Below, piece by piece: positions 2,138-63,560 of a DNA stretch of 64,000 bases. The stretch is taken from the IMG/VR virus record IMGVR_UViG_3300031760_006602; one strand, given 5' to 3'. The position numbers and the translations under genes are program-made. The DNA comes from an uncultured virus (IMG/VR IMGVR_UViG_3300031760_006602). Lineage: Duplodnaviria > Heunggongvirae > Uroviricota > Caudoviricetes. Every line of letters begins with the position of its first letter. Positions within the stretch are counted from its first letter, which is position 1. The notes beneath the pieces are model-generated. The model ran no database searches. It saw nothing but the letters and a program-made list of their open reading frames with translations, and had not been told where the DNA came from.

Positions 2138-2153
2138 TTAGTTAACAGGGTAA

Positions 2154-3128: not shown

Positions 3129-3174
3129 TATTAGTAAAAATATAGATTTTCATTTTTATTAAAGGATTAAAATA

Positions 3175-4812: not shown

Positions 4813-4816
4813 TTAT

Positions 4817-9296: not shown

Positions 9297-11603
9297 TTGG
9301 CAATTTTAATTGAAAAAAGGGATGGAAGGTTAGTAGTATTTTCAAAAGATAAAATTGTAAATGCAATGTCAAAAGCATATTTTTCTACACGTAAGGAGTT
9401 TGACTCTAATTTTTCTGATTTATCTGATTCTGTATCTTGTTATATTGAACGAAGAGCTCTTGAAAATAATAGTAAGTTAAATGTAGAAGACATTCAAGAC
9501 ATTATTGAACATAAGTTAATGTGTAGTCAATATAAAGACGTAGCAAAATCCTATATAAAATATAGAGACCATAGAAGTATAGAAAGAGGTAGAAGGTCTG
9601 AGTTAGTTAAAAATATTTCAGAAAAAATAAGAGCTAAAAATGTTCAAAACCAAAATGCAAATATGGATGAAAAGTCTTTTGGTGGTAGAATGGGAGAAGC
9701 TCGAAACGAGTTAATGAAAGATTATGCATTGAAATATTGTATGTCTGAAATGTCACGTAATAATCATTTAGAGAATATTATTTATATTCATGATTTGGAT
9801 AGTTATGCTGTAGGTATGCATAATTGTATGTCAATGCCTTTAGATGATTTATTAAAAAATGGGTTTATTACAAGACAAACAGATGTAAGACCCGCGCAAT
9901 CTTTAAATACGGCTATGCAGTTAGTAGCGGTATTGTTTCAGTTACAGAGCTTACAACAATTTGGGGGTGTAAGTGCCACTCATTTAGATTGGACAATGGT
10001 TCCGTATGTTAGAAAATCATTTACAAAACATCTTGCAGATGGTATGAGGTATGTAGAAGGAAAATCAGAATATAAGACTGAAAGATTTTGGAAATGGTTA
10101 AAACATGATGAAAATCACCCAGATGGTTTAATTCATATGGATGACGAAGAGTTTAAAAGTTTACATGAGCCCGCTTGGGAATATGCTATAAATATGGTGG
10201 AAAGAGAAGCTTCTCAAGCTGTAGAGGGGTTATATCATAATTTAAATACACTTCAAAGTAGGTCAGGAAATCAATTACCTTTTACTTCTATCAATTATGG
10301 GACATGTACACTTCCTGAAGGAAGGTTGATTACTAAAGTTTTGTTAGATGTATCAATAGATGGAATAGGTAAGTTACATAGAACACCAATTTTCCCATGT
10401 GGTATCTTTCAATATATGAAAGGGGTAAATGATAAAGAAGGAACTCCGAATTATGATTTGTATAGGTTAGCTCTTAAATCTACCGCAAAAAGGTTATACC
10501 CTAATTATGCAAATGTAGATTGGAGTGGTAATGCTGGGTATGATATTGATAATCCAAGTACATATTTTTCAACAATGGGTTGTAGAACCGCAAATGGTTT
10601 AGATATTAATCAAACAGACCCAAAATTGAAACAGTTGAAAGATGGACGTGGTAATCTTTGTCCTGTTACTGTTATACTCCCGAAAATTGCTATGATAGCG
10701 AAAGAGAAAGCAGAAGAGACTCATAAAGATATAGTAGATGTTTTCTTCGATGTTTTAGAAAACAAAATAAAAGAAGCTAAAGATATGTTAATAGAACGTT
10801 ATCATTGGCTTTGTATGCAGTCTCCTGATTCAGCAAGATTTATGTATGAAAATCATGTAATGTATGGATATAAAGAAGATGAAGGAATTGAATCAGCGTT
10901 AAAACATGGTACATTATCTTTAGGTCAGTTAGGATTAGCTGAAACTTTACAGATTTTAGTAGGGTGTAATCATACAAAACCTGAAGGAATGAAATTAGCG
11001 AAAAGGATTGAAGGTTTGTTTGCTAAAAAATGTAAGGAATATAAAGAAGGGTATAAGTTGAATTTTGGGGTTTATTACACGCCAGCAGAAAATCTTTGTT
11101 ATACAGCAATGAAGAAATTCAAAGAAGAGTATGGTGAAATACCTAATGTTTCAGATAGGGATTATTTTACAAATTCTATGCATGTACCAGTATGGGAAAA
11201 ATTAAGTCCGTTTGATAAGATTGATGTAGAAAGTCAGTTAACAGGGTTTAGTTCAGCAGGTTGTATTACTTATGTAGAGTTAGATGGTTCTGTAAATCGT
11301 AACATTGATGCTCTTGAACAGATTGTAAATTATGCAATGGATAAAGATGTTCCTTATTTTGCGGTAAATGTACCTTCTGATTTGTGTTTAGATTGTGGGT
11401 ATCAAGGTGAAATTAATAATGAATGTCCACAATGTCATTCTAAAAATATTCAACAATTAAGACGTGTGACAGGGTATTTGACAGGGAATTATCTAACAGC
11501 TTTTAATAAGGGTAAGCAGGAAGAAGTGCATGATAGGGTAAAACATGCTAATAAGTTAGTAGATTTTGAAGGAAAAGAGCTTGAAGAAAAAGTAAATTTT
11601 TAA
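9297..11603 (+). CDS. nrdD: Anaerobic (class III) ribonucleoside-triphosphate reductase
   Basis: N-terminal ATP cone (IEKRDGR), IHDLD, MGCR, YTPAENLC, CxxC...CxxC and glycyl-radical motif RVTGYL. Confidence 0.97.
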   Translation: MAILIEKRDGRLVVFSKDKIVNAMSKAYFSTRKEFDSNFSDLSDSVSCYIERRALENNSKLNVEDIQDIIEHKLMCSQYKDVAKSYIKYRDHRSIERGRRSELVKNISEKIRAKNVQNQNANMDEKSFGGRMGEARNELMKDYALKYCMSEMSRNNHLENIIYIHDLDSYAVGMHNCMSMPLDDLLKNGFITRQTDVRPAQSLNTAMQLVAVLFQLQSLQQFGGVSATHLDWTMVPYVRKSFTKHLADGMRYVEGKSEYKTERFWKWLKHDENHPDGLIHMDDEEFKSLHEPAWEYAINMVEREASQAVEGLYHNLNTLQSRSGNQLPFTSINYGTCTLPEGRLITKVLLDVSIDGIGKLHRTPIFPCGIFQYMKGVNDKEGTPNYDLYRLALKSTAKRLYPNYANVDWSGNAGYDIDNPSTYFSTMGCRTANGLDINQTDPKLKQLKDGRGNLCPVTVILPKIAMIAKEKAEETHKDIVDVFFDVLENKIKEAKDMLIERYHWLCMQSPDSARFMYENHVMYGYKEDEGIESALKHGTLSLGQLGLAETLQILVGCNHTKPEGMKLAKRIEGLFAKKCKEYKEGYKLNFGVYYTPAENLCYTAMKKFKEEYGEIPNVSDRDYFTNSMHVPVWEKLSPFDKIDVESQLTGFSSAGCITYVELDGSVNRNIDALEQIVNYAMDKDVPYFAVNVPSDLCLDCGYQGEINNECPQCHSKNIQQLRRVTGYLTGNYLTAFNKGKQEEVHDRVKHANKLVDFEGKELEEKVNF

Positions 11604-17897: not shown

Positions 17898-18755
17898 ATG
17901 GCAATTAGTTTGTTGAAACGATATAAAAATGAGATAGATTATATTAGAAGTAAACTTACTTTTAATTTTTGTAATGTTGGGTATTGTAGTATAATGATTT
18001 GCAGAAGTTTTCCTGTGCCAGGTACATCTAATCTATCTTTTAGTTATGGTGAGAATACAACATCTATTTCAGAGTTAATAAATGAAAAAAATATTGACTT
18101 TAAAAAACATGTTAAAATTATAGAACAAAGGAATTTGATTTATATTGGAATAAATCTTGAAGATATTAAATTTGAAAATTTAAAAAGATTTTCAAATTTT
18201 TATTTAGGGTATAAGTTTTTTGAAAGAGGGTTAGATGATATAGACTCTTATAGCATGGGAATATTTTATTATAATTTTCTATCAAAAGTTAAATTAATTA
18301 ATGATAAAGATATGTTGTTTTTAAAGACAGCAATGCCTGAAAATGATTTTCCTGAATTATATATTCTTATTAATGCTATTTTAGATGATGGGAATGATAG
18401 AATTGACCCAGACGATAGTTCTAATTATGAAAAGTTTTTAAAAATTTTAACGGATTATATTAAAAGTGGTAGACTGGATAAAGTTTATTTGTTTAGAGAG
18501 ATAAGAAGAAATATAAGTAATAGTTTAAATAAACCTTTTAAAGTTGGGTTGTATAGTGATTGTTATAAAACGTTAAAGGACAGACAAATATTGCCTTATG
18601 TGGTATATTCACCCTATGAAGGTTTAGTTAAGTATCAATACTCTTATAATTCTTATAGTGAGAAAAAGAATGTGATTCGGTTTGATATTAATAGTTTAAA
18701 GAATAGGGATAATGCTTATGCTCCGTGGGGATTAGTAGAGAGGTTAGAGGATTAA
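17898..18755 (+). CDS. Paralogue family A member 1 (unknown function)
   Basis: N-terminus MAISLLKRYKNE; LIYIGINL; LKDRQILP. Confidence 0.75.
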   Translation: MAISLLKRYKNEIDYIRSKLTFNFCNVGYCSIMICRSFPVPGTSNLSFSYGENTTSISELINEKNIDFKKHVKIIEQRNLIYIGINLEDIKFENLKRFSNFYLGYKFFERGLDDIDSYSMGIFYYNFLSKVKLINDKDMLFLKTAMPENDFPELYILINAILDDGNDRIDPDDSSNYEKFLKILTDYIKSGRLDKVYLFREIRRNISNSLNKPFKVGLYSDCYKTLKDRQILPYVVYSPYEGLVKYQYSYNSYSEKKNVIRFDINSLKNRDNAYAPWGLVERLED

Positions 18756-18758
18756 ATT

Positions 18759-19706
18759 ATGTCTATTAGTTTATTAAAACGTTATAGAAATGAAGTGATA
18801 GCTGTTTTATCTAAAACTAAAAAGTGTATTAAAGATGAGTGGGGAGATGATTTTGAAATACTTTTTACAGTTAAGTCACCTTATGCAGGTTATGAGTATG
18901 ATGTAAAAAGTGGAACTACTTCTTATTCTATAACTTTAAGGGTTAATAGAGTTTTTGCAAATAAATGGTTGGTAGATAAAATAAATGCTGTTGAAGATAG
19001 TGGGTTAGTTTATTTTGGGGTTGACTTGGATAGGAGTTTTGTAAATACTGTAATAAAATCATATTTTGATGTTAGTTATAACGGAGATATAGACTCTTTT
19101 ATTTGTAAAAACCCTATTAGAAATGTTATTTGGGAAAGAGAGAGATATAAGTTTAGAGAATATTCATCTGACAATGGTAATAGTCTTACTAATTATAGCA
19201 ATCCGTTATTACTTGGAAATATTGAAACTTATGCAGATTATGGTTTAATGGCTAAAAGAAATGATGGTGAGATAGAGTTTGTAGACCCTGGTTGGAGAAG
19301 TAAAGTTTTGGATGATTTTATATCAAATAATTTAAGTATGATTAAAAATTTAAATTATTTTAAAGTTTGTAGAAAAGAAATAGACAGTTTATTTTCTAAT
19401 TTAAGTATAAAGGTAGCAGATGGAGAGTTTCCAAAATTAAACAATAGAAGTTTTTTACCTATTGTTACAGTTAATTTTAATAAAAATGAGGTATCTTATT
19501 TATTTAAAACTACTTATGTGAATAAAGGGGTTTCATTTCCAGCATATGCGAAAGGTTTAATGAAATTAGATATAGAAACTTTTTTAAGTGGTGGTGGAAG
19601 AAATTATATTATTCCACCAACAAATGCATTAGAGATGGAGTATAAAGGCGGAAAGTGTAGATGTAATGACGGTAGTATGTTAAATATTAGTTTGTCAGTA
19701 GATTAA
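18759..19706 (+). CDS. Paralogue family A member 2
   Basis: MSISLLKRYRNE; AVEDSGLVYFGVDLDR; DGEFPKLNNRSFLP. Confidence 0.8.
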   Translation: MSISLLKRYRNEVIAVLSKTKKCIKDEWGDDFEILFTVKSPYAGYEYDVKSGTTSYSITLRVNRVFANKWLVDKINAVEDSGLVYFGVDLDRSFVNTVIKSYFDVSYNGDIDSFICKNPIRNVIWERERYKFREYSSDNGNSLTNYSNPLLLGNIETYADYGLMAKRNDGEIEFVDPGWRSKVLDDFISNNLSMIKNLNYFKVCRKEIDSLFSNLSIKVADGEFPKLNNRSFLPIVTVNFNKNEVSYLFKTTYVNKGVSFPAYAKGLMKLDIETFLSGGGRNYIIPPTNALEMEYKGGKCRCNDGSMLNISLSVD

Positions 19707-19725
19707 ATTAAAAGAGGGTTAGCCT

Positions 19726-20637
19726 ATGTCTATAAGTTTATTAAAACGATATAAAAATGAGATAGAGGTAATTTTAAGTAAAACTAAAAAGAGGTTATAT
19801 ATTGGTAATGTTAGCAATCATGTTTACTTTACTATAAAGTGTCCTTGGAGTGGGAGTGAAAATTCTTATTGTCATTCTTTGTACTTTGGAAATAAAATAC
19901 CTTTTAAAAAGTTACTTAAAGCAGTAGAAGATAGTGGACTGGTTTATGTAGGAATTGATTTAGATAGATATGTTGAACATCTTTTTTTAGATAATTCTTT
20001 TAGTGGAATTTATAATTATTTAAGCATTTCTGATATAGATAGAATTGCTGTATTTTTGCTTAGAGAAATGTTGGTTGGTGAGTTTAGGTATATCAGAAAT
20101 GAGTGTGGGGACTCAAGAAATTTAAATGGTTATAAAGGTGAATTGGTTCTTGAAAATTATAAAAATTATATAGATGGAAATATTTTTGAGAAAGACGGTA
20201 ACGGGAATATCCTTTGTAAGGAAGTTGGTTATTGGGATGTATATACGTTTTTTGATAAGTTTGTGGAAAATAATTATAAAGACACTATGGTAAAGAATAA
20301 TAAGTATTATAAGAGGTTCGTAAAAGCAGTAGAAGATTTTTATAGTAATATTAATTTAAAACTTGCTGATGGAGAGTTTCCAAAATTAAACAATAGAAAT
20401 TTCTTACCTATAGTAGTTTTGGATTTTGATAAGGATTCAGCTGTTTATCTTTATAAAAGTAGGTTAACCGATAGTGGTGGAACTGAAATGTATAGAAAAG
20501 GGTTAAATCGTGAAACTATACAGTATTTTTTACAAAGTACTGTATATATTGTGCCTTTTGTAAATACAATAGCAGTTGATTATCAAGGAAAAGAAGTTAG
20601 AATGAATAACTATGAACATATTTATGTTAAGGTTTGA
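19726..20637 (+). CDS. Paralogue family A member 3
   Basis: MSISLLKRYKNE; AVEDSGLVYVGIDLDR; DGEFPKLNNRNFLP. Confidence 0.8.
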   Translation: MSISLLKRYKNEIEVILSKTKKRLYIGNVSNHVYFTIKCPWSGSENSYCHSLYFGNKIPFKKLLKAVEDSGLVYVGIDLDRYVEHLFLDNSFSGIYNYLSISDIDRIAVFLLREMLVGEFRYIRNECGDSRNLNGYKGELVLENYKNYIDGNIFEKDGNGNILCKEVGYWDVYTFFDKFVENNYKDTMVKNNKYYKRFVKAVEDFYSNINLKLADGEFPKLNNRNFLPIVVLDFDKDSAVYLYKSRLTDSGGTEMYRKGLNRETIQYFLQSTVYIVPFVNTIAVDYQGKEVRMNNYEHIYVKV

Positions 20638-20652
20638 TTGAGGTTATTTGAA

Positions 20653-21573
20653 ATGTCCATTAGTTTATTAAAACGTTATAAAAATGAGGTAAATTTATGT
20701 GTGAAGGAGGTAAAAGAGGGGTTAAAAGGTTCAGATTTTTATGAAATTATTACGCCTGTACATGTAAAATTGCCCTATATTAATGATGACTTTGTTGGAA
20801 GGGATTTTTCTTTATCGATAGATGGGCTAGTATTAAATAATATATATGCAATAGAGTCTAATGGGTTAGTTTATATTGGTTCTGATATTACTAAAAAAAT
20901 TATGTCAGATATAATAAGTTATTCTATAAAACAAAAACCGTTTTGTTCTGAAGATAGTGTAGTTTTACATTATATGAAACAGATTTTGTTTAAAGAGATT
21001 GATTATATTACAGACATTTATCTTAATAGCTATGATGATAGTGTTGGTAAGTTTGACATTACCGGATATAGTAAAGATTTAGTATTAGAAGACGAGGAAT
21101 GGTATATATGGGGAGGTATCTTTGATAGAAAAGGTAGTAAACTCTATTGTAATTTAATTTATTTATCAGGTCTTGAAGAAAAGGTCGATAATATTTTAAC
21201 AGGTATGCGTAAATCCGGTGTTTTACAGAAAATTAAAATTTATAATAAGTTAAAAGAAATAGTTGAAGACCTTCATAATATCGAAGTTTCTTTGTCCGAT
21301 AAAGAATATCCAAAATTAAATAATCGTAAGTTTTTACCTATAGCTGTTATAGATTTTAGTAAAAATATTGTTTCTTATTATAAAGATAGAAGAAATATGA
21401 AAACAGAAGATAATGTAAATTTTTCTGCAAGTTCAAGGGGTTTAGTTAAAAGAGAGTTGGATGACTTTATGGGGGGTAAACGACTTTGTTATCCTCCTTT
21501 ACATTTATTAAAGTTTAGTATGAATGGTAGAGAGGCAAGACTTGGGGGAACTCTTGAGTTATGGAATAAATAA
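20653..21573 (+). CDS. Paralogue family A member 4
   Basis: MSISLLKRYKNE from ATG 20653; GLVYIGSD; EYPKLNNRKFLP. Confidence 0.8.
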   Translation: MSISLLKRYKNEVNLCVKEVKEGLKGSDFYEIITPVHVKLPYINDDFVGRDFSLSIDGLVLNNIYAIESNGLVYIGSDITKKIMSDIISYSIKQKPFCSEDSVVLHYMKQILFKEIDYITDIYLNSYDDSVGKFDITGYSKDLVLEDEEWYIWGGIFDRKGSKLYCNLIYLSGLEEKVDNILTGMRKSGVLQKIKIYNKLKEIVEDLHNIEVSLSDKEYPKLNNRKFLPIAVIDFSKNIVSYYKDRRNMKTEDNVNFSASSRGLVKRELDDFMGGKRLCYPPLHLLKFSMNGREARLGGTLELWNK

Positions 21574-21584
21574 TAGGTGTTATC

Positions 21585-22451
21585 ATGGGTTTAAGTTTAT
21601 CAAAAAGGTATAAAAATGAAATAGGGTTAGTATTAAATATAATTAAAAGAAATTTTGTTAGTAGCATAATATCTGATTATAGAAATTGTATTAGAAGGTT
21701 TTATGATTTTTCTTATAATGAATCAACTTTTAGTTTGTATTTAAATTGGTTAAGTTTGTCTAAAACTGATATAACTGAATTTTCAGTTTATGAGTTAAAT
21801 AAAAAGGTTTACATAGGATTAGATTTATCTAAAATAAGGTCTGAGTATTTTGATTTTCGAAGTTTAAATAGGGGTACTTATGATGCAGAAAATATATTTG
21901 ATGGGTATGCCGAAAATGAAGTAGATAATTGTACAATGTCTTGTATTTATTATATGTTAGAATATGATTGTTTGAGAAGGGAAAAAACAAGCAAGTTTGA
22001 TATAGTACCTTTTGAAATATGTAAAGAGTATGGTTTAGCTCAGATAGATACAGGTGGAAAAAGGGTTTATAAGGTAGATGATTTAACATTTCTTTTTAAT
22101 ATGGTAGCAAATCTATATTATAATAAGAAAAGGTTACAAGACTTAGATTGTTGGAATAAAGTTTATAAATGTGTGGACAGTATAGTAAACGATTCTTGTT
22201 TAGTATTAAGGAAGGGGTATTTTAAAGATATTAGTAACAGAAAATTTTTACCAGTTTGTGAAATTGATTTTAGTAAAGATACTGTAAGAGCGTGTGTAGA
22301 TTTTCAAAACGATTCAGCAAATCTCAAAAAATTTGATTTTTCTGATTTTGTTCGTAAGGGTGATGGTTATGGGTACTATTTACCTATGTACGCTTGTGTT
22401 ATGTGGGATGGTGATAAGCACTATGCAGATGGGACAGTTTATCGTGTTTAA
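21585..22451 (+). CDS. Paralogue family A member 5
   Basis: MGLSLSKRYKNE; VYIGLDL; ISNRKFLP. Confidence 0.75.
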   Translation: MGLSLSKRYKNEIGLVLNIIKRNFVSSIISDYRNCIRRFYDFSYNESTFSLYLNWLSLSKTDITEFSVYELNKKVYIGLDLSKIRSEYFDFRSLNRGTYDAENIFDGYAENEVDNCTMSCIYYMLEYDCLRREKTSKFDIVPFEICKEYGLAQIDTGGKRVYKVDDLTFLFNMVANLYYNKKRLQDLDCWNKVYKCVDSIVNDSCLVLRKGYFKDISNRKFLPVCEIDFSKDTVRACVDFQNDSANLKKFDFSDFVRKGDGYGYYLPMYACVMWDGDKHYADGTVYRV

Positions 22452-35725: not shown

Positions 35726-35758
35726 TTACTTTACTTTAAGTAAAATTTGTGTTATACT
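35726..35758 (+). promoter_or_regulatory. Extended -10 promoter with palindromic operator
   Basis: TTTACT-17bp-TATACT with TG; TACTT-N6-AAGTA. Confidence 0.8.
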
Positions 35759-35791
35759 ATAGATACAGTAGTAGATTGGTTGGTGTTAATA

Positions 35792-36475
35792 ATGGGTTTA
35801 TTGAGAGATTTGGAGGGTAGTTATATGATACATGAAGGAATTAGTTATAACAAAGTAGGCAGTATTTTAGAAGGTCTTGATAAAAGTAATTATATAATGG
35901 ATGGGTATGATAGGTACAATAAAATCAACGAATCCAGTTTATCCCGTATTATGAAACATGTTGAGAACGGATTTTTTACTATGTCTGCTTTTCGTTCTGA
36001 AAATGATAAGAAACAAAACAAAGATGCTACAAAGAAATTAATGTCTGATTTAAAGTCTGAAGGTTTAGGGTTTATTCAGTTAATTGGAGGGTATGTAGAA
36101 CATAATCAGGAAACCGGAGAACCTATTAATGTAGAGGAAATTTCTTTGTTTGTTCCGTACAAAAATGATATTGAGGAAGATAAGTTTTTGGGTATTGTAA
36201 GAAAGTTAGCCATTAAATATAAACAAGAGGGATTTATTGTTTGCCTACCTTCCACACAAAAGATTATTATGTATGCAAGGGACGATATTTCCAGTAGTTC
36301 TTTTACAGAGACGGATTTAGGAAAATTTAATATTAAGAAAATGTCAAATTACTATTCAAGGCTTAAAAAGGGAGGTAGTCAAACTAATATTAAATATACC
36401 TTTGAGGGGTACCGTGTTCCTTCCTCTTGGATTAATTCTGTAGTAATGGAATCGGAAGGATGTGTAAATCCATGA
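35792..36475 (+). CDS. Conserved large-phage hypothetical protein
   Basis: INESSLSRI, SAFR, GGYVE, KYKQE pattern; start codon uncertain. Confidence 0.6.
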   Translation: MGLLRDLEGSYMIHEGISYNKVGSILEGLDKSNYIMDGYDRYNKINESSLSRIMKHVENGFFTMSAFRSENDKKQNKDATKKLMSDLKSEGLGFIQLIGGYVEHNQETGEPINVEEISLFVPYKNDIEEDKFLGIVRKLAIKYKQEGFIVCLPSTQKIIMYARDDISSSSFTETDLGKFNIKKMSNYYSRLKKGGSQTNIKYTFEGYRVPSSWINSVVMESEGCVNP

Positions 36476-36813
36476 TTTACACATCCTATTTTGGCAATTA
36501 CAGACATTTACCGTTAGAAAAGTGTGTTTCAATAGCAAGACAGACTGTGGGTAGAATACCGTCTTATGAAAAATTATTTCCACAAGAATACTTGTTATAT
36601 GATTATAAACGTGGTAAAGTTACTCCAGGACAGTATGTAAATTTATATAAGGTTGAAGTATTAGATAGGTTAGACCCATATCAAGTATATAAAGAGCTTG
36701 ATGGGTGTATTTTATTATGTTATGAAACACCAGAAAAGTTTTGTCATAGACATATTGTGGAAGCTTGGTTTAAACATTATGGGTTAGAGTGCGAGGAGTA
36801 TAAAAATAAGTAG
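36472..36813 (+). CDS. DUF488-like protein
   Basis: IYTSYF, SIAR, LLCYE...FCHR. Confidence 0.75.
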   Translation: MIYTSYFGNYRHLPLEKCVSIARQTVGRIPSYEKLFPQEYLLYDYKRGKVTPGQYVNLYKVEVLDRLDPYQVYKELDGCILLCYETPEKFCHRHIVEAWFKHYGLECEEYKNK

Positions 36814-38315: not shown

Positions 38316-39002
38316 ATGATATACTTAACAGGTGATGTACATTTACCTTATGATGTTAGTAAGTTACGTTATTTTAAAGAACAAGATAATCTTACAAGAG
38401 ATGATTATGTAATTGTATTAGGGGATTTTGGTTTACTGTGGAAAAAGGACAACGATACCTATAAACAGTGGTTAAAGTGGTTTAATCAAAGAAAATATAC
38501 ATTATTGTGGTTAGATGGAAACCATGAAAATCATGAATTATTAAATTCTTACCCTGTAGAGATTTGGAATGGTGGTAAGGTTCATAAGATTTCTGATAAT
38601 ATCATTCATTTAATGAGGGGTCAGGTGTTTTCTATACAGGAAAATACATTTTTTACAATGGGTGGTGCCTGGTCTATTGATAAACATTATAGAATAGATA
38701 GGATTTCATGGTGGCAGGAAGAAGAGCCTAATCATAGTGAGATGGAAGAAGGGTTTGAAAATCTTGAAAGTCACAATAATGAAGTAGATTATGTACTAAC
38801 ACATACTTGTCCCTTTTCTGTGATAACAGAGATGTTTCAACCCACTGTGGTATATAATTCAGTAACAGAATCTTATTTAGATGAAATAAAAGATAAAATA
38901 AAATATAAGAAATGGTATTTTGGACATTGGCATAAAGATGTATCTTATGATAACTATGTATGTTTGTATAATAAGATAGTAAAACTTGGTGATGGAGTAT
39001 GA
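38316..39002 (+). CDS. Calcineurin-like metallophosphoesterase
   Basis: GDVH, LGDFG, DGNHE, THT and FGHWH are all intact. Confidence 0.92.
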   Translation: MIYLTGDVHLPYDVSKLRYFKEQDNLTRDDYVIVLGDFGLLWKKDNDTYKQWLKWFNQRKYTLLWLDGNHENHELLNSYPVEIWNGGKVHKISDNIIHLMRGQVFSIQENTFFTMGGAWSIDKHYRIDRISWWQEEEPNHSEMEEGFENLESHNNEVDYVLTHTCPFSVITEMFQPTVVYNSVTESYLDEIKDKIKYKKWYFGHWHKDVSYDNYVCLYNKIVKLGDGV

Positions 39003-39236: not shown

Positions 39237-40772
39237 ATGTATGAAACAATGAAGGGAATGTATTATGACTATGATAAATTAATATTGAAAGTCCCTAAAG
39301 AAATTAGACGGTTCATGGAGTTATTACAGAATGAAGGGAATTGTATTGTTTATGTAGTTGGTGGTGCCGTAAGAGATTTATATAGAGGGGTAGAGCCTCA
39401 TGATTATGATTTAACAAGTAAATTAACTCCTGATGAAATTAAATCTATTTTAAGTAAGTATGATAAAATTAAAGTAGTAGATAGGCTGGGTAATAACTTT
39501 GGGGTAGTAGTGGTAAGTTTAGGTAGTTATGTTGTAGAAATTGCCACTTTTCGAAGGGAAGTTTATGGTAGTGACCCTCACCGTCCTGAACGTGTAGAGT
39601 TTTCTGATTCTATATTAGAGGATTTATCAAGACGGGATTTTACAATGAATGCAATGGCAATTGATTTGTATTATAATATTATAGACCCGTTTTGTGGTAG
39701 ATATGATATTTCTAATAAATTATTAAGAACAGTTGGAAGTGCTGAAAAACGTTATATAGAGGACCCGTTACGTTTGTACAGAGCTTGTCGATTTGTAGGA
39801 CAGTTAGGGTTTAAATATGTAGAAGATGATTATATTAAAAACAGTTTTGTAAGTTGGGATACTTCTTTTATTAAAGCACAGGAAAGTCGAATCAATTCTT
39901 TATCTGTAGAACGTGTAAAGCAGGAAATGGAAAAATTGATAGTAAGTCCTTATGTGTTACGTGGAATGATTTTGTTTATGGATAGTGGGTTGGTACATAC
40001 AGGGTGTACAGATAGAAGAGATGGTAAAGAGATGGTTGTTTTTCCTTTCCGTTGTTTAGAACATTTAAAAGGGTTAATACAAAATAAAAAGTATCATAGA
40101 TTTGATGCTTGGGAACATACGTTATATGCTATTAATAGAAACAATAATGTATTTTGTGATAAAGTTATTTCTTGGGCTTTGTTGTTTCATGATGTTGGTA
40201 AAGGTACAATAGGGATAAGAGATTATAAAGACGGTGTACCTACTGATTATGGACATGAAAAACGTTCCGCAGAGATAGCTGAAAAGTCTTTACGTGAGTT
40301 GGGGTTCAATGAAAAACAAATAAAGTTGATTACATTTTTAATTAGACGTCATATGGACTTTCCTGTGTTTATAAAGGGTAGTGATTATACAATTAAACAT
40401 TGGTTACGAAAGAATGCAGTAGGGTTTAAAAATCAAGAACAGTATAAATATGCATTTAATCGTTTGTATGGGGTAATGTGTAGTGATAAGATAGCAAGTA
40501 TTAGAAATTTTGAAGAAGAGAAAGTATTAAGTGAGAAACTTGTTAAAGCTATGTGTTATCTTGACGCTATGATGGTAATTCATTCCAGTGACTTACACAT
40601 TAAAGGAGACTTTATTGTCATTGCATTAAAAGGTACACCTATTAAAGTACAGGATATGTATAGAGAATTGATAAAAATGGTACAAGACGGAAATTTACAG
40701 AATGATGAAATATCTTTAATGAAATCAGTTAAAGCAAAAGTAAAAAGGTATCTCAACAGTAAAAAACCTTAA
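39237..40772 (+). CDS. CCA-adding enzyme/poly(A) polymerase family nucleotidyltransferase with HD domain
   Basis: VGGAVRD, DYD, RRDFTMNAM, EDPLR, ERV, followed by H..HT...FHDVGK...GHE. Confidence 0.92.
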   Translation: MYETMKGMYYDYDKLILKVPKEIRRFMELLQNEGNCIVYVVGGAVRDLYRGVEPHDYDLTSKLTPDEIKSILSKYDKIKVVDRLGNNFGVVVVSLGSYVVEIATFRREVYGSDPHRPERVEFSDSILEDLSRRDFTMNAMAIDLYYNIIDPFCGRYDISNKLLRTVGSAEKRYIEDPLRLYRACRFVGQLGFKYVEDDYIKNSFVSWDTSFIKAQESRINSLSVERVKQEMEKLIVSPYVLRGMILFMDSGLVHTGCTDRRDGKEMVVFPFRCLEHLKGLIQNKKYHRFDAWEHTLYAINRNNNVFCDKVISWALLFHDVGKGTIGIRDYKDGVPTDYGHEKRSAEIAEKSLRELGFNEKQIKLITFLIRRHMDFPVFIKGSDYTIKHWLRKNAVGFKNQEQYKYAFNRLYGVMCSDKIASIRNFEEEKVLSEKLVKAMCYLDAMMVIHSSDLHIKGDFIVIALKGTPIKVQDMYRELIKMVQDGNLQNDEISLMKSVKAKVKRYLNSKKP

Positions 40773-44480: not shown

Positions 44481-45140
44481 ATGGAAGATAGAAGAAATAC
44501 AATAGTGATTAATTTGTTTGGGGGTCCCGGCAGTGGTAAATCAACGACTGCCGCAGGACTCTTTTATTTTTTCAAATTGTTTGGACTTTCTTGTGAATTG
44601 TGTACAGAGTGGATAAAGGAGTGTGTATATGAAGAAAGAAAAGAACCTTTTGATAATCAAATATACACATTCGCAAAACAACATAAAAGATTATTAGATT
44701 TAGAAAACAAGGTAGACTTTATTATTACGGATAGCCCTATATTGTTATCTTCCATATATGGACAGCATGTATATGAGAAAGAACAATTTGACGAGTTTAT
44801 CTTTTTACAGTTTAGTAAGTTCCATAATTACAATGTTTTCTTACAACGTCCTGTAACTTTTGAGCAGGTAGGAAGGGTTCATGATGAAAAGGCTTCAAAA
44901 CAGAAAGATGATGAAATATGGAAAATGCTAAAAACATATGGTATTTTACATAACTTTATAGAAACAAGTGTATATGCAGTCCGTGAAATACTACGTGATT
45001 TTTATAAGTTTTATGTTTTTGAAGATGTTATATCCAGGGAAAACAAAGCAGGAAATGTGAAAAAGCTGGAAAGATTATTAGATTATGTCAGTTATGTAGA
45101 CTCATACCCTACAGAAACTACGGAAGGGAAGGATATTTAA
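44481..45140 (+). CDS. P-loop NTPase/nucleotide kinase-like (AAA_28/NadR-type)
   Basis: INLFGGPGSGKST, ITDSP, GR.H. Confidence 0.8.
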   Translation: MEDRRNTIVINLFGGPGSGKSTTAAGLFYFFKLFGLSCELCTEWIKECVYEERKEPFDNQIYTFAKQHKRLLDLENKVDFIITDSPILLSSIYGQHVYEKEQFDEFIFLQFSKFHNYNVFLQRPVTFEQVGRVHDEKASKQKDDEIWKMLKTYGILHNFIETSVYAVREILRDFYKFYVFEDVISRENKAGNVKKLERLLDYVSYVDSYPTETTEGKDI

Positions 45141-47132: not shown

Positions 47133-47621
47133 ATGTATCTAACAGAGCATACGATTCAACATTCTGTGAAAGTTGCAGAAATCATGTCTAAAATCTGTAA
47201 ACGTTTTAGTAGTACGTTAACTCCTGAAGATATGTATCTGTTGGGGTTGGTACATGATATAGGTAAACTGTTAGACGATAACAAGAAACCTATTTTACTT
47301 GAATCTGTAGGACATGCACATCATGGGGGAACTATTTTAGAACAGAATGGGTATCAGTATAGTGACGAGGTATTTCATCATGGACATCCAGAAGAAGATT
47401 ATCGAACTCCAGCATGGTATTTGTTAAATGCCGTTGATTTGGCAGTAGATAAGAATGGGGTGTTGATTGGTCATAACTTGCGAATGTTGGGTATTCAGAA
47501 TCGGTATGGAAAAGATTCCGTACAGTATAAACGTGCCAGACGTATTTTAGATGAAATTTATAATTTACGACACTATGATGTAGAGGATATTAAGGAAGGG
47601 GTGTTAAGGGATGAAGGATAA
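47133..47621 (+). CDS. HD-domain phosphohydrolase
   Basis: HSVKVA, VHDIGK, HAHHG, HHG, D. Confidence 0.85.
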   Translation: MYLTEHTIQHSVKVAEIMSKICKRFSSTLTPEDMYLLGLVHDIGKLLDDNKKPILLESVGHAHHGGTILEQNGYQYSDEVFHHGHPEEDYRTPAWYLLNAVDLAVDKNGVLIGHNLRMLGIQNRYGKDSVQYKRARRILDEIYNLRHYDVEDIKEGVLRDEG

Positions 47622-48497: not shown

Positions 48498-49130
48498 ATG
48501 TATGGTAATTGGTCAGGGGAAAGTTTAATCAAGAGAGGTCCTTTTGATTTCAGAGAAGTCTATAAACGTGAAATATATGTGTATAAGTTATATTGTGATG
48601 CTTGTAGGTCAGGTAGATTTATCCCTTCTTGGGATTTAGAACAACATTATTATTGTTGGGAAGAGTTCGCAGAAGTTTCAGCAGAGGTGTATAAGAAAAT
48701 CTCTGATTTATGTCACAAGTTCGGTATTAGACATGTGTATGATATAGGGAGTGCCTTTCCGTTTCAAGCCAATTTGTTTTGGTACTGGGGTATAGCTTAT
48801 ACAGGTATAGACGATAGTAAAAGAACAGTAGATAACGCAAATACAATTCACAGAATACATACCCTATATGGGAAGTATCCTTTTGAAATTCAAACAGATT
48901 CTAAAAGTTGTGCTATATCAAATCTGTGTGTAGGGTATCAAGCAAATTCTGATGAGGTGTATCAACAAATTGTAAAAGATTTCCCGTATTATTGTGGGAT
49001 ATTAAATGATAGAAGCAAGGAAATGTTATTACCTTATTATAGGGTAGTAGAGACAGATATTATTATAGAGAAAAAGAAGTTGGTATTATCTTACTTACCA
49101 GACAGTGTTGTGCTTATGGAGAGAAGGTGA
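48498..49130 (+). CDS. Putative SAM-dependent methyltransferase-fold protein
   Basis: VYDIGSA...YTGID resembles motifs I and II. Confidence 0.45.
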   Translation: MYGNWSGESLIKRGPFDFREVYKREIYVYKLYCDACRSGRFIPSWDLEQHYYCWEEFAEVSAEVYKKISDLCHKFGIRHVYDIGSAFPFQANLFWYWGIAYTGIDDSKRTVDNANTIHRIHTLYGKYPFEIQTDSKSCAISNLCVGYQANSDEVYQQIVKDFPYYCGILNDRSKEMLLPYYRVVETDIIIEKKKLVLSYLPDSVVLMERR

Positions 49131-49196
49131 ACAAGTGGGTAAATAAGTGGTAATGATAACGTAATAAACTATAATTTATTTGTAGGAGGTACTAAA

Positions 49197-49676
49197 ATGG
49201 GTATAAGAGAAAGCTATTATAAAACAAAAAATTACATACCTAAAGTTGCAAAGATGTTAGACTTGGTAGTAGGTGACGAGTTTTTATTGGAAGATGTAAG
49301 AGATGGTTCTGTTTACAAAAATGCCGAAACAGGAAAGAAACAGAAATTTGTAATGACGGATTATGGGGTAACTGCCGTATTAGATAGTGGAAAACAGGAA
49401 GTACAACCTATTTTATTTGTCGGTGTTTTGTGTGGTACGTACAAAATAAGAAAGTTACCTTTTAATCCAAAAGAAGGGGATAAGTACTTTTATATATCTT
49501 GGAGTAATAATATGCACCCTACTGTGAAAGATACTGTATGGATGGGAAGTACGTTTGACTATATGTGTTACGCCTTAAACAATGTATACCGTAACTATTT
49601 TGAAGCAAGTGATAATATGGGTTCCGTTGTAAATGGTATTAAATCTTTCAAAGACCCAGGGTTTTTAAAGATTTGA
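49197..49676 (+). CDS. Paralogue family B member (unknown function)
   Basis: LxVGDEF...PFNPKEGDKYF...WMG..DY; shared with 54380 and 57291. Confidence 0.6.
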   Translation: MGIRESYYKTKNYIPKVAKMLDLVVGDEFLLEDVRDGSVYKNAETGKKQKFVMTDYGVTAVLDSGKQEVQPILFVGVLCGTYKIRKLPFNPKEGDKYFYISWSNNMHPTVKDTVWMGSTFDYMCYALNNVYRNYFEASDNMGSVVNGIKSFKDPGFLKI

Positions 49677-49717
49677 TATAAAGGTATTGAGGTAATAAGG
49701 AAAAGAGGTAAAGGTAC

Positions 49718-50605
49718 ATGGAAAACATTATTTTGAAATTACAAAAAGATGTAAAAGCGGCAGCTGATAGTTTAACAAGTGATGAAGCAAGATTCTTGGT
49801 AGATTTTTATTATCAGATGCAGAATTATCGTATTTCTGCTAAAAATCAGTGCCGTTCATTGGATACGGAAGACCCAAATGAGCCACATGTTACGATTGGT
49901 TACTTTGCTGAAAACTTCCGTTTATTGGAAAATCAAATTAAAAATTGTTTAGCAGAGTATGCGAAGTCAAAGTTAATCGGTCAGTGGTGTATGAGTATCT
50001 TGGGGATTGGTCCTGTCATTACAGCTGGGTTAATTGCTCATATTGATATTATGAAGGTACAAACAGCAGGTCAAGTACAAGCTTTTGCCGGATTAGACCC
50101 TACAAAGAAGTGGGAAAAGGGTCAAAAACGCCCATTTAACGCGAAACTGAAAACCCTCTGTTGGAAAATAGGGGAAAGTTTTATTAAGGTATCAAACAAA
50201 GACGAAGATATTTACGGACATATTTATCGTGTACGGAAAGAATATGAAAACGATAAAAATTTAAGGTTTGAATATAAAGAACAGGCAGAACAGATTTTGA
50301 AAAACAAGAAAATCGGTAAGGATACGGAAGCGTATAAGTTTTATAGTATCGGTATGTTACCTCCAGCTCATATCAATGCAAGGGCTCGTAGATATGCGGT
50401 TAAAATCTTTTTATCACATCTGTTTAGTGTATGGTATGAAATGGAACATAAAGAAAAACCACCAAAACCGTATGCGATAGCTATTCTTGGTCACGCTCAC
50501 GAAGTACCTATTCCTAACTGGGAAAATGGACATCTGTGTATTTCAGAAGAAGGTAGTAAGAAAAAGTTTAAAGAAAGTAAATACACAATGATAAAACAAG
50601 GTTAA
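49718..50605 (+). CDS. tasA: Nop/IS110-related RNA-binding protein without nuclease domain (TasA-type TIGR-associated protein)
   Basis: Coiled N-terminus (YYQMQNYRI), then IS110 C-terminal/Nop-like motifs SILGIGPVITAGLIAHID, FAGLDP, FNAKLKTLCW, HINARARRYAVKIFL. No N-terminal RuvC DEDD domain. Sits immediately upstream of a 36-nt dual-repeat array. Confidence 0.82.
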   Translation: MENIILKLQKDVKAAADSLTSDEARFLVDFYYQMQNYRISAKNQCRSLDTEDPNEPHVTIGYFAENFRLLENQIKNCLAEYAKSKLIGQWCMSILGIGPVITAGLIAHIDIMKVQTAGQVQAFAGLDPTKKWEKGQKRPFNAKLKTLCWKIGESFIKVSNKDEDIYGHIYRVRKEYENDKNLRFEYKEQAEQILKNKKIGKDTEAYKFYSIGMLPPAHINARARRYAVKIFLSHLFSVWYEMEHKEKPPKPYAIAILGHAHEVPIPNWENGHLCISEEGSKKKFKESKYTMIKQG

Positions 50606-50609
50606 TTTT

Positions 50610-50809
50610 AATTGATTCACATCAAGCGATAGTAACTAAATATATGAATGATACTAACAATAAGATAGTAACAAATACTACGATAGAATCATTAGTTCAG
50701 ATAGTGACATAACTTGCAAATGTATTTAAGTAAATCACATAGTGGGATAGTTACTGGGAGATTAGAATGAATCATTAGTTCAGATAGTAACAGAGCAGAT
50801 GAATTAAAA
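50610..50809 (+). ncRNA. TIGR-like dual-repeat guide array, segment 1 (about 5 units)
   Basis: GATAGT(A/G/T)AC at 50628, 50664, 50700, 50746 and 50783, alternating with GAATGAATC-like repeats and 9-nt variable spacers. Confidence 0.85.
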
Positions 50810-50840
50810 TCGTAAATAAAGATAAAAGGAAGTAAGAAAC

Positions 50841-51905
50841 ATGGAAGATAAAAAGTTTTATGGATATCCTGATATAGAAAACTCGTATCAAGAAAGTTTT
50901 GTGGAGAAGGCTATAGAGTATGGGTACAAAGATATACCCTATCTTGTAACAGAGAAAATACATGGAAGTAATTCTCAAATCAGTTATGATGTATATTCTA
51001 AAGAGTTTTCTTATGGTACAAGAAGCCATTACTTGGAAGAAGATGAAAAGTTTTATAATTTGCAAGATGTACTTGAGCCGTTACAAGAAAAGGTAGTAAA
51101 AGTAGCCGATTTGATTAAACTTGACATTGGTAAGTACGGACAGAGGTTATTGTCTGTTACTGTATTTGGGGAAGTGTTTGGGGGAAGTTATCCACATGAG
51201 GCTGTGGAAAAGGATAATAAAGCAATCAAAGTACAAAAAGGTGTATTCTATTCACCCCATAATCAGTGGATGGCGTTTGATATAGGGTATGTAATAGATG
51301 GTTCAGATAAAATGTTTTTCTTGTCGGGGGACAAGTTTGTAAATTATTGTTTTGTATCACAAATCAATATTGTACCTATTTTAGCGGTGACGGAAAATCT
51401 AACACAAGCCTTAAATTATCCGTGTGATGGTAATTCCACTGTATTTAGAAGGTTTGGGTTACCTGAAATAGAAGGTAATATCATGGAAGGTGTAGTAATT
51501 CGTCCCGACTCTATGGATGTATGGATTGGGCAGCATCGGTTAATTTTAAAAAATAAGAATGATAAGTTTAAGGAAAAAAGCCGTGCAAAGAAAAATGATA
51601 CACCCGTTGACCTTCCTGAAATAGTAAAACAAGCTTGTGAAGAGATTTCCCAGTATATCAATATAAATAGGGTCAATAATGTAATTTCACATATAGGGGA
51701 AGTAACTGCAAAAGATGTAGGTAAAATAATTATGTTAACTTCTCAAGATGTACTAAATGACTATAAAAAGGATTATGGTACATTAAATACGTTGGAAAAG
51801 AAAGATGAAAAGTTAGTTACAAAGTATATGAATGGTGAAGTTGCAAAGTTAGTAAGAGATGTTGTTATATTTGGTAAATCAGAAGAATCTGATAGTAACA
51901 CGTAA
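50841..51905 (+). CDS. rnl2: Rnl2-family RNA ligase
   Basis: Motif I TEKIHGSN, FGEVFGG, AFDI, EGVVIRP, LKNKNDKF, and C-terminal INRVNNVISHIG. Confidence 0.9.
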   Translation: MEDKKFYGYPDIENSYQESFVEKAIEYGYKDIPYLVTEKIHGSNSQISYDVYSKEFSYGTRSHYLEEDEKFYNLQDVLEPLQEKVVKVADLIKLDIGKYGQRLLSVTVFGEVFGGSYPHEAVEKDNKAIKVQKGVFYSPHNQWMAFDIGYVIDGSDKMFFLSGDKFVNYCFVSQINIVPILAVTENLTQALNYPCDGNSTVFRRFGLPEIEGNIMEGVVIRPDSMDVWIGQHRLILKNKNDKFKEKSRAKKNDTPVDLPEIVKQACEEISQYININRVNNVISHIGEVTAKDVGKIIMLTSQDVLNDYKKDYGTLNTLEKKDEKLVTKYMNGEVAKLVRDVVIFGKSEESDSNT

Positions 51906-52624
51906 CAGGAATGAACCATGCGGCTGGATTGTAACAGTGTATCGAAGTGAATTAGTCAACACGATAGTAACACAGTAAGTGAATGGGTCAATTCACAAAT
52001 AGTAACCTAATTGAAACATCTTTCTGGATTGTAACAAGAGGTGAGATTGGTTTACAAGACATGATTGTAATATGAGAATGAAATGAAACATTGTAGAAGA
52101 TAGTAACAAGGTCGACTATTGAATCAAATAATTTGGTAGTAACAAATTAAGGAAATGAACCGCTAGAAGAGATAGTGACAAAAGGTTAGAGTGAATTATG
52201 TTGCCGGATTGTAACACCCAGTATGAATGAGCCATGAAAAAGGGTAGTAACAAAAAAGGTTTGAGTGAGTTTGGAAACGGGATAGTAACAGGTTTTCTGA
52301 ATGAAACACGTAAAACGATAGTAACAAAGTATGTAATTGAGTTAATATGCATGATTGTAACAACGATGGGAAACGGAACACATGATGAGATGGTAACATG
52401 TAGTAGCGATTGATTCATGTACTTGGATAGTAACAATGAAAATGAGAGAAACACGCACCTGTGATGGTAGCAAACAGAGTGATTGAATCAGTTAATCAGA
52501 TAGTAACATAGGATTCGAATGAAACATGTTGTGGGTTAGTAACTTGTTCAAAGATTGGTACAAAATAGCCGATAGTAACACGTTTGGTGATTGAAACTTG
52601 CGGGCTGATAGTAACAAATGGGTA
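51872..52624 (+). ncRNA. TIGR-like dual-repeat guide array, segment 2 (about 21 units)
   Basis: GAT(A/T)GTAAC-type repeats at 51891, 51927, 51963, 51998, 52027, 52063, 52099, 52135, 52171, 52207, 52243, 52281, 52317, 52353, 52389, 52426, 52463, 52499, 52535, 52571 and 52607 (mostly 36 nt apart). The second repeat GA(A/T)TGAA(A/T)C lies halfway between. Confidence 0.92.
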
Positions 52625-52729
52625 ATGATTGTGTAAATTAAGGTAATAAATAAATTTTAAATTTTGTTATCTTTTTCCACCTCTCTGTAACTTCTTATAT
52701 AATACCTATAGCCCGCATTTTTATATTCT

Positions 52730-52873
52730 TTTTAAATCAATAAACCTGATAGTAACATTACAGGGGAATGGTACATATTACATTATAGTAACACAATGTA
52801 TGATTGAACAGAATTATAGATTGTAACAACATTATGAGATTGAAACAATAAGATAGATAGTAACATACAAATT
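52730..52873 (+). ncRNA. TIGR-like dual-repeat guide array, segment 3 (4 units)
   Basis: GATAGTAAC-type repeats at 52748, 52784, 52819 and 52856, with GAATGGTAC/GATTGAA(A)C between. Confidence 0.85.
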
Positions 52874-54317
52874 GATTAAATACTTTGGGGGTAATTATGA
52901 GTAAAAGGAAACATGTAAAAGCCTTTACTGCCTTTGTAGATTTAAATTCTTATTGTCAAAAACATCAGGATAATGGTTGTCAAGGGTGTATATTTGACAT
53001 GTCTAAAGGGGTAGTAAGAGATTGTGTAATAGAAAATCTTGCCAAAACTTCTAAAAGGGGTAGAAAAAATTTTATAGGTAAAGTTATAACAAAACTGAAT
53101 AAGTTGTTAAAGAGGTAAACAAGTATCATGTTAGAATCATTAGGTACTGTTAAGTTAGAAGATATTAATTCTTTAATGAAAGAAAAACCTTTTTATGGAG
53201 AAGATATAAAACAGATTTTGGACTCTCTAACTTTGGTAGCGAGTAGATTATCTGATACTATGTATATTCTACCTTTTATGGGTAGTAATTCTGATATAGA
53301 GAAGGTACTAACTTCAAGAATAGGTGAGGTTAGGGAATCTTTAGGTATTTTAGAGCGTTTACGTTATTCAGCACATACGGGGTTAAGTACAGTAAAAGAT
53401 AGATATTATTTACGAGTAATGCCTGAAAGTGGACAGGGGTATTTAGTTAAAGCTTATCAGTTTGATGGTGACTTTGTAAATAAAGACGGGGAATGGTATG
53501 CACCACGTTGGATACAAATGGAGTATATACTTGGGAAACTGTATTATTCCGGTCCAGAGCTTTATATCTATAGAGAAAACGATAAAGAACGTGTAGACAC
53601 TTTAGTGCCTGTAGGCTCCTATCTTGTAAGACGATGTGACGGAAATGGGGAGTTGTATGTAATTACTTCTGAAATGTTGGAAGAGTATTTTACAGAAGTA
53701 GAGATAGGGGTAAATGTAGGTTTAGTAGATATTAAAAATAAGGGAATGTAGATATGAAAAAGTTTTTAGCTGGTATTTCTTTAATGTGTGTAGCAGATGG
53801 TATGATTATTAGTAAGTTGTTTGGGGACAATGTTTATTTAATTGCTACGTTATTTTCGGTAGGCAGTGTTCTTTGTTTTTTATGGTGGTGGAATGATAAG
53901 TAATATAAAGTTGGTGAGTTAGTATGTTAGTACACGCTGTAGAAATCAAAAGTAGGAATGAGTGGGAAGAAGGAATATATTCAGTACAAGCCTTTGAAGT
54001 TCATACGAAAATTGAAAATGGAAAAACAGTAGAAAAAATTTCACTGTATGGAGTTCCGTTTAAGGGCAATCCTATTGTAAAAGATAAAGTACTTTCTATA
54101 ACAAAGTCAGCTTTGTTTAGGGGTAAAAATCTTACATGGTTTGTCTTTAACGGAACTGTTTTTTATGCAAGAGAGGGGATTGAAGATATTTCCAATATTG
54201 TAGAAAAAGCATTTAAAGAGTATGAAAAACGTTATGGAAATGAATTATAATGGGGTCTATAGGAAATTTCCATTCAAAAAAAAATAATATCAGTTTTGTA
54301 TTAAGTTTAAGTAAAAA

Positions 54318-63305: not shown

Positions 63306-63560
63306 ATGGGAAAAGGTGAGAGATTTGAGCCTTGTCCTTGGTGTAAATGTAGACCGAGGTTACAGTTAACAGATGAAGAAGGGAATTTTAGGGGTGAAAG
63401 TTATTTGGAAAACCCTTATAGCGGGGTAGGTTATGTAATTGTACATGCAGAATCACTAACATGTCCTATTGCAACCTGTGGCGTCGAGTTTGTTGGGGGT
63501 AGGATTTATGATACAGAGGAAGAAGCAATTAAATCTTGGAATAGTTGGAAAAAGAGTTAG
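63306..63560 (+). CDS. Lar (restriction alleviation)-like protein
   Basis: EPCPWC...CPI...EEEAIKSWN. Confidence 0.6.
   Translation: MGKGERFEPCPWCKCRPRLQLTDEEGNFRGESYLENPYSGVGYVIVHAESLTCPIATCGVEFVGGRIYDTEEEAIKSWNSWKKS

Follow-up and report, generated by a model that had tools for sequence, protein, structure and literature searches.

An Rnl2-type RNA ligase gene between blocks of a TIGR array in a phage-like contig

Anatomy of the tasA–ligase locus

We analysed a 64-kb stretch of DNA from an uncultured virus (IMG/VR record IMGVR_UViG_3300031760_006602; hereafter the window), part of a large, AT-rich, phage-like contig with a further ~90 kb outside the window. Parts of this stretch are present in gut metagenome runs from 12 studies; one RNA run, available as contigs, is listed with a share of 0.11. 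On its + strand the window carries a TIGR-Tas locus in the order tasA, array block 1 (5 units), an Rnl2-type RNA ligase gene, array block 2 (21 units) and array block 3 (4 units). A first-pass annotation of the sequence had proposed (i) that the array pauses near position 50809, gives way to an intact ligase gene and restarts in its final codons, (ii) that the ligase stop codon lies within a spacer and (iii) that no obvious terminator separates the parts. All three statements were borne out: block 1 ends at ~50804–50810, the stop codon (51903–51905) lies in the spacer after a perfect repeat (51891–51900), and neither intergenic gap holds a terminator-like site. The terminator scan of 49000–53200 returned three weak sites, compared with 1.2 ± 1.1 expected, all in coding sequence and two of them in the ligase.

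The tasA gene (49718–50605, + strand) encodes a solo Nop-domain TIGR-associated protein of 295 amino acids (aa) that matches NCBIfam NF052498 (TIGR-Tas) with 198.1 bits (cut-off 100). Its profile matches to PDB 9mty (E 4.8e-17) and to TasH (21kl; E 1.3e-12) are both stronger than those to IS110 transposases. Among the families scanned, no nuclease domain was found in the protein, including an N-terminal RuvC or HNH domain, and the family match begins at residue 7–24; we assign it as TasA because it is a Tas-family protein without a nuclease domain. Across 31 homologues H259 is invariant and Y252 nearly invariant. The two residues are spaced like Y289 and H296 of SpTasH, a stretch of SpTasH that lies outside the printed alignment, and constitute a candidate processing dyad; 9mty carries Trp at the position of Y252. 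Derivation of the TasA tail from the array was also considered and rejected, as scores were negative and similar basic tails occur in other Tas proteins.

The motif GATAGTAAC, with up to one mismatch, has 46 matches in the window, of which 29 lie on the + strand at 50628–52856 and 17 are scattered over the other 62 kb. We parsed 30 copies of the GATAGTAACA-type repeat, distributed as 5, 21 and 4 over three blocks. Each unit is built from a 10-nt repeat, an 8-nt spacer, a 10-nt GAATGAATCA-type repeat and a further 8-nt spacer, and 18 of the 27 within-block intervals are exactly 36 nt long. Position G5 pairs with position 9 in 30/30 and 24/24 repeats of the two types, the box C/D-type motifs can pair, and the repeat CCA motif has diverged to NCA. 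All three blocks begin and finish in a truncated GAATGAATCA-type repeat.

Block 1 (50610–50804, + strand), with GATAGTAACA-type repeats starting at 50628, 50664, 50700, 50746 and 50783, contains two units of irregular length (46 and 37 nt), a spacer that is present twice, and a 3′-truncated final repeat. Between this block and the ligase lies a short leader (50805–50840, + strand, recognized from its sequence) that is rich in A and includes a ribosome-binding-like run of purines; the scan found no terminator-like hairpin in it, and its fold z-score is +0.70. Block 2 (51876–52631, + strand) comprises 21 GATAGTAACA-type repeats. It is followed, at 52642–52703 on the + strand, by an AU-rich hairpin and a U-run, a possible block 2 terminator, and then by a sigma-70-like promoter site (52674–52703). 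A terminator-like hairpin occurs after block 2 only (fold z −2.07 for 52600–52749); the promoter site has 10/12 promoter matches, and such sites are not enriched (13 found, 19.9 expected). Block 3 (52733–52877, + strand) holds four GATAGTAACA-type repeats and a truncated repeat at each end. The non-coding gap that splits the array here (52617–52732), with its hairpin, U-run and promoter-like site, has a similar counterpart of ~170 nt in the arrays of loci L001–L004, and in L001 (7990–8080) a duplicated palindromic stretch lies inside it.

Outside the arrays, spacers have 9 self-targets with up to two mismatches, compared with 9.4 for shuffled spacer pairs, and none in the ligase or tasA. A 15/16 spacer match in the other register, at 56411, was judged fortuitous on a rough estimate with no computed control. 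The 64-kb window contains no tRNA genes and no Rfam matches.

The ligase gene (50841–51905, + strand) is intact and encodes a 354-aa protein that we class, from Pfam and similarity to T4 Rnl2, as an Rnl2-type ATP-dependent RNA ligase with motif-I lysine K39. It contains the domains PF09414 (68.5 bits) and PF18043 (78.2 bits), with a cut-off of 27, and matches PHROG 548 (E 6.8e-56) as well as T4 Rnl2, both by sequence (E 2.8e-20) and by fold (E 3.9e-22). The structural model has a mean predicted local distance difference test (pLDDT) score of 88.7, and Foldseek ranks 1–3 are all T4 Rnl2. Because its score against the Rnl2 equivalog NCBIfam TIGR02307 (141.5 bits) lies below the cut-off of 197.15, we file the protein as Rnl2-type by domains and fold, and not as the equivalog. 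Residues E38, K39, H41, G42, R61, E111, D147, E216, K237, K239, R277 and D303 are invariant in 41 sequences; all twelve align to T4 Rnl2, and we take their catalytic roles to be those of the ligase motifs. The gene is full length in 15/15 listed members of the ligase cluster, and its GC content at third codon positions (0.27) falls within that of neighbouring genes (0.24–0.29). The predicted activity is the sealing of 5′-phosphate/3′-OH RNA ends.

Junctions between the ligase and the array

We checked the junctions on contigs of four runs (X2, X3, X5 and X6) from four studies, none of which is the possible source run. A single contig crosses both ligase–array junctions in run X3 (50366–51909) and in run X5 (50577–52184), and two contigs cover both in run X2. 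Among the pieces listed, run X6 has no bridging piece over either junction, and none of the four runs has a contig joint that skips the ligase. An assembly chimera or a one-off decaying insertion might be suspected, since repeat arrays are prone to misassembly and block 1 shows some degeneracy (spacer GC 0.30 versus 0.40, uneven unit lengths). Independent contigs from three other studies carry identical junctions, however, which rules out misassembly, and the ligase and TasA clusters comprise 24 and 18 members, with eight same-sized contigs common to the two listed sets, three of them <6 kb, that appear to be shared contigs. We consider this explanation extremely improbable. The layout is real, common to related strains and well conserved within one phage group. 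Strains differ within block 2, where we observed a 172-nt unit deletion (X3), a new unit (X5) and different spacers (X2, X3 and X6); the listed contig pieces of the four runs show no gain or loss of units in block 1.

At the downstream junction (51876–51905, + strand) a truncated repeat, a 9-nt spacer, a full repeat and the start of the next spacer form the C-terminus and stop codon of the ligase. The last 10 codons, G345–T354, cover the truncated repeat, the 9-nt spacer and the perfect repeat. Block 1 occupies the space between tasA and the ligase, and block 2 begins exactly where homologous ligases end, after K346; 8 residues follow K346 here as compared with 0–5 in 40 homologues. Homologue P0131 has a different, 2-residue end, yet is nested in the tailed clade (support 100/97), and residues 351–354 are modelled at pLDDT <50. 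Because homologues lack a long tail, P0131 ends differently and disorder is predicted for the tail end, the 8-residue tail appears to be a lineage-specific read-through that is recent and dispensable, and not a conserved feature. The native ligase stop would have been lost at the junction, for which a 3-nt slip is enough, and translation would then run 8 residues into the first unit.

As far as their sequence tells, one junction is an ordinary array end and the other an ordinary array start, and 'embedded' here means lying between two canonical blocks. The half-repeats that flank the ligase have background frequencies of ~0.005 and ~0.006, and the two would rejoin as a normal 37-nt unit, so that an insertion within a repeat is an equally good fit. 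The ligase may thus have landed mid-repeat in an older array, or a new block may have been seeded at the ligase end, two origins that are indistinguishable.

To place these junctions among related systems we gathered 189 Tas loci with Tas and ligase queries, corresponding to 112 clusters at 90% identity with a median of 16.6 kb of DNA and including the best 80 of 391 and the best 80 of 524 matches. Arrays were located with a simple periodic 7-mer seed, which returned no array in 13/112 loci. Among 42 other non-redundant loci with an array downstream, 23 (19 by a stricter criterion) have a box-C-like motif immediately after the tas stop codon, an arrangement seen at the stop of 1/87 window genes as background. 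Seven of 98 other array-bearing loci have an open reading frame (ORF) of ≥100 aa with blocks on either side, although two of the seven (L260 and L277) were not confirmed by eye; the interposed genes include those for RecT, a DNA methylase and a terminase-small-subunit-like protein. The blocks of L118 and L280 that adjoin RecT, the DNA methylase and a 1087-aa intein-bearing gene start at the stop codons of these genes or no more than a few bases away. Blocks in the TasA clade are shown by these sequence comparisons to begin with a truncated repeat at a gene 3′ end and to end truncated before the next gene. Stop-flush starts and interleaved unrelated genes suggest that the arrays colonize gene ends regardless of function, and the overlap with the ligase end appears to be the normal way in which such arrays begin.

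Individual loci illustrate the variety of these layouts. In L118 (6968–11304) the order is YqaJ exonuclease, array, RecT, array, tas and array, with the RecT stop within a truncated first repeat. L280 (8583–20278; tas at 9899–11065) has at least six TIGR blocks among a DNA methylase, tas, small genes and the 1087-aa intein-bearing gene, several of them beginning at stop codons and one apparently inside a reading frame. A 400-aa gene without a Pfam match lies between two TIGR blocks in L115 (11301–12503).

Ligase and Tas genes in other genomes

The first-pass annotation had offered the ligase as a possible functional partner of the guides and had proposed a survey of Tas neighbourhoods. The option does not survive that survey. 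An Rnl2-type ORF flanks tas in 1/111 other non-redundant Tas loci (L165), where the junction is broken and no array was detected. At the level of whole records, PF09414 occurs in 2/48 and 0/40 (together 2/88) Tas-bearing virus records, many of which are fragments, and both matches are far from tas (~13 kb and ~74 kb, the latter round a terminal repeat); both ligase-bearing control records were recovered. The reverse search found Tas in 0/27 and 0/16 ligase-bearing records, with both Tas controls recovered in the 16-record search. No ligase domain is fused to Tas in 73 long Tas-like proteins, which is weak evidence as the best 7,999 candidates were scored. By sequence, a conserved Tas–ligase partnership is not supported.

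In L165 (a Thermoanaerobaculia bin, Acidobacteriota; 2478–4071) an Rnl2-type ligase runs out of frame into tas. The ligase is short by ~10 residues and tas lacks ~20 N-terminal residues; an HNH-like gene then follows. This ligase belongs to a distant clade unrelated to the window ligase, and tas is found in 0/16 records of that clade. The locus is a deletion, a chimera or a decayed tas–ligase locus, and we keep it only as a weak second case on account of the broken junction, the undetected array and the record count.

If the partner option were wrong, the annotation had expected related phages with the ligase elsewhere and an uninterrupted array. Related TasA systems (54–68% identity) do have ligase-free arrays, but no close relative with the ligase elsewhere was found among the viral_contigs matches, the best of which share 66–68% identity in Tas and 50–53% in the ligase. 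Of the 87 window proteins, no more than 2 and 6, respectively, are shared with the two nearest ligase-bearing records. The closest ligases seen in context are those of L011 (53% identity), G006 (50%) and G007 (43%), all without tas or an array, whereas the nearest relatives by identity alone reach 55–65% (P0002–P0030). A homologue of the DUF488-like gene at 36460–36813 lies ~4 kb upstream of the ligase in G006 and G007, compared with 14 kb here, a position that is a possible trace of an older ligase neighbourhood.

In a lineage-specific form of the partner proposal, the ligase would, after end-healing, circularise guides, multimerise them or repair those nicked by host RNases as an add-on to this system. 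In its most novel version, the lineage would have recruited the ligase into the TIGR operon, TasA would cut the joint transcript and, once ends are healed, guides would be closed into nuclease-resistant circles or re-joined in new unit orders. We regard both versions as improbable. The ligase is intact with invariant motifs and is fixed inside a likely operon, L165 offers a second tas–ligase adjacency, and an HD protein (47133–47621) and a P-loop kinase (44481–45140) lie within 7 kb. The TasR guide is described as a pseudo-symmetric figure-eight whose two ends rebuild the edge repeat (PMC12045711), which would make guide closure sterically plausible. The kinase, however, matches AAA_28/thymidylate kinase, co-occurrence is not conserved (1/111 loci, 2/88 records, 0/43 in reverse), and L165 is truncated at both genes, with no array detected and no tas among the records of its ligase clade.

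The chemistry of guide ends also bears on this proposal. SpTasH matures its own guides, and does so metal-independently (PMC13421893). ATP-grasp ligases of the Rnl1/Rnl2 kind require 5′-phosphate and 3′-OH ends, and metal-independent RNases generally give cyclic-phosphate and 5′-OH ends (PMC7824862). By analogy, metal-independent guide processing probably leaves no ends suitable for Rnl2, and the expected ends suit RtcB instead; among the window proteins scanned, none matched the polynucleotide-kinase, 2H or RtcB families, with ~90 kb of the contig lying outside the window. Re-joining would, moreover, tend to inactivate guides, because blocked processing impairs SpTasH activity (PMC13421893).

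Further observations concern Tas proteins and other window genes. Among the 73 long Tas-like proteins (P0272–P0344), 40 carry Pfam domains that we take to be of intein or homing-endonuclease type, most of the names being assumed from accession numbers. In most of the intein-type Tas proteins inspected the insert lies near profile position 150, and P0272 and P0274–P0276 have an extra N-terminal region of ~240 aa without a Pfam match, a possible unrecognized Tas effector domain. Elsewhere in the window, five tandem paralogous ORFs of 285–315 aa (17898–22451) have a common ISLLKRY-like start and no Pfam match. The region 545–8563 has the appearance of a phage-borne peptide-modification cluster: it comprises a laminin-G-like protein and its neighbour, whose 3′ regions are cysteine-rich and repetitive, followed by a ThiF enzyme and three radical-SAM genes, one of them with SPASM. 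A SAM-lyase-family gene (35747–36475) and a Lar-like gene (63306–63560) both have possible anti-restriction functions.

Processing, origin and known systems

Taken together, the window locus is probably a gene for general RNA repair that ordinary TIGR blocks surround, co-transcribed with them and trimmed by TasA; of the options in the first-pass annotation, a gene that simply inserted there fits best. General RNA repair is indicated by a CCA-adding-type tRNA nucleotidyltransferase (39237–40772, + strand; assigned from PHROGs and Pfam, with NCBIfam below cut-off) and phosphoesterases in the same window, among them a metallophosphoesterase (38316–39002) that, like the nucleotidyltransferase gene, lies outside the locus. 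A CCA-adding enzyme and phosphoesterases are typical companions of phage RNA ligases (PMC7824862). Used as a query, the CCA-adding enzyme finds relatives of only 27–38% identity. The ligase would seal breaks with 5′-phosphate/3′-OH ends, whether in tRNA or in other RNAs, such as those left by an attack of host anti-phage RNases. It would not be needed for guide production: three TIGR systems make guides in E. coli from tas and the array alone (PMC12045711).

Because the gaps lack a terminator-like site and an AU-rich hairpin and U-run follow block 2, we infer that tasA, block 1, the ligase and block 2 form one transcript. From the conservation of Y252/H259 and their spacing, like that of the SpTasH catalytic pair, TasA would cut this transcript at edge repeats, yielding 36-nt guides and a ligase mRNA of ~1.1 kb with one uncut unit at each end. 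By the truncation rule, the GAATGAATCA-type repeat is likely to be the edge. The first cut after the ligase would then fall at ~51913, just past the stop codon, leaving the ORF whole. If the GATAGTAACA-type repeat were the edge, the cut would take off the ligase stop codon. Deletion and insertion boundaries between strains occur at both repeat types and do not settle which one is the edge.

If the locus is one transcript, an effect of processing on ligase mRNA would follow from its anatomy. A stronger proposal is that the position was kept by selection because TasA binding or cutting sets ligase output. With a GATAGTAACA-type edge, a cut at ~51895, before the stop, would leave an mRNA without a stop codon and direct its product to tagging and degradation, turning the ligase down; with the other repeat as edge, the ligase mRNA, holding this gene alone, would carry a TasA-bound unit at either end, which may stabilise it. 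Such coupling accords with a perfect repeat within the ORF, a stop in the spacer and parts that no terminator-like site separates. Tail substitutions track array variation (D to G is a repeat variant found elsewhere in the array, S to P lies in the spacer), and the stop-bearing spacer is retained where strains have lost or altered the units that follow it. For tas itself, intragenic guides have been proposed to link maturation with translation (10.64898/2026.09.09.750476). Stop-flush array starts are common and require no special purpose, however, an in-frame stop would be supplied by the next repeat anyway, the tail is lost in P0131, and the layout does not recur in other lineages. We consider selected coupling unlikely, though worth keeping in view.

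Several observations weigh against the reading of the ligase as a passenger. The array-derived tail is kept in 14/15 listed ligases, down to 89% identity, and no ligase-free strain was seen in the four runs, the layout being fixed in the phage group. The 55–65% identical ligase relatives might also adjoin arrays, and L165 is a real second tas–ligase adjacency, which counts a little but not much. TasR edge repeats are described with an extra base pair, and this rule favours the GATAGTAACA-type repeat as edge (30/30 versus 11/24). Finally, the ligase frame contains a degenerate unit-like stretch (51812–51857, + strand) of repeat, loop and repeat at 36-nt spacing, with its C-type motif broken, that is not explained by chance (P ~0.008 by synonymous shuffling of the whole ligase gene). 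At 13.4 bits it is the best of 125,464 non-array positions, the next scoring 6.1 and real units 33.6–46.0. The same shuffling applied to 78 other genes reached this score 0.017 times per round in total, and 3/8 homologue proteins reached it in 1–4% of shuffles. The stretch, which was found post hoc, is offset by 7 nt from the phase of block 2. It may have attracted the array to the site, or may be a sign that TasA binds the mRNA. In run X5, a further ligase homologue matches the coding stretch 51792–51847 at ≥80%, and part of the unit-like signal may for this reason predate the array.

As a passenger, the ligase offers a clean example of TIGR arrays filling intergenic gaps, starting at gene ends and overwriting a stop codon. 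The stop-flush start, which occurs in 23/42 loci and at the ends of non-tas genes too, offers a usable lead on how arrays are seeded, and a gene inside an array is by itself no evidence of an accessory role. The ~3-kb locus is a compact test bed for identifying the repeat that TasA proteins of this clade cut and for the chemistry of guide ends. If the ligase did act on guides, circular or re-joined guides would be added to RNA-guided systems, with a use for guide stability in editing; a recruited ligase would be the first RNA-processing accessory of TIGR-Tas and a handle on array protection or reshuffling.

The literature searched agrees with the first-pass annotation that no RNA ligase is described as a TIGR-Tas accessory. 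Our search found no publication linking TIGR-Tas with an RNA ligase, although supplements and subscription papers could list the locus; 'ligase' is absent from the TIGRFinder text, and one co-mention of tigRNA and ligase refers to a cloning reagent. The layout of the locus is apparently unreported. Guide units inside tas coding sequence and arrays between tasA and tasParB have already been published (PMC12045711; 10.64898/2026.09.09.750476).

The ligase resembles T4 RNA ligase 2 (RnlB; PDB 2hvq/2hvr) in its two-domain architecture, motifs and fold. Unlike T4-like ligases, to which it is ~24–30% identical, it has an 8-residue array-derived tail and lies within a guide-RNA locus, its activity being predicted. 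As in the phage RNA-repair kits described in PMC7824862, it occurs in a large phage with a CCA-adding-type enzyme and phosphoesterases. In the tasA–tasParB operons, dual-repeat arrays lie upstream, downstream and between genes (PMC12045711), and the window locus likewise has a non-tas gene among dual-repeat arrays; whereas tasParB recurs across loci in the published account, the ligase has no recurrent linkage to tas (1/111 other loci, broken).

The closest known system is dual-repeat TIGR-TasA of the FpTasA type (Faure et al. 2025, PMC12045711; Xu et al. 2026, 10.64898/2026.09.09.750476). Judged by its sequence, the window locus would be an ordinary member of this type, for which 36-nt guides and RNA-guided DNA binding are predicted. 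The two have in common a solo Nop protein, 36-nt units with two alternating repeats and two short spacers, truncated repeats at block ends, a phage location and units that may overlap coding sequence. The window locus differs from these systems in that the overlapped coding sequence is an RNA ligase and not tas, and in that 8-nt spacers are combined with 10-nt repeats in three blocks of together 30 units.

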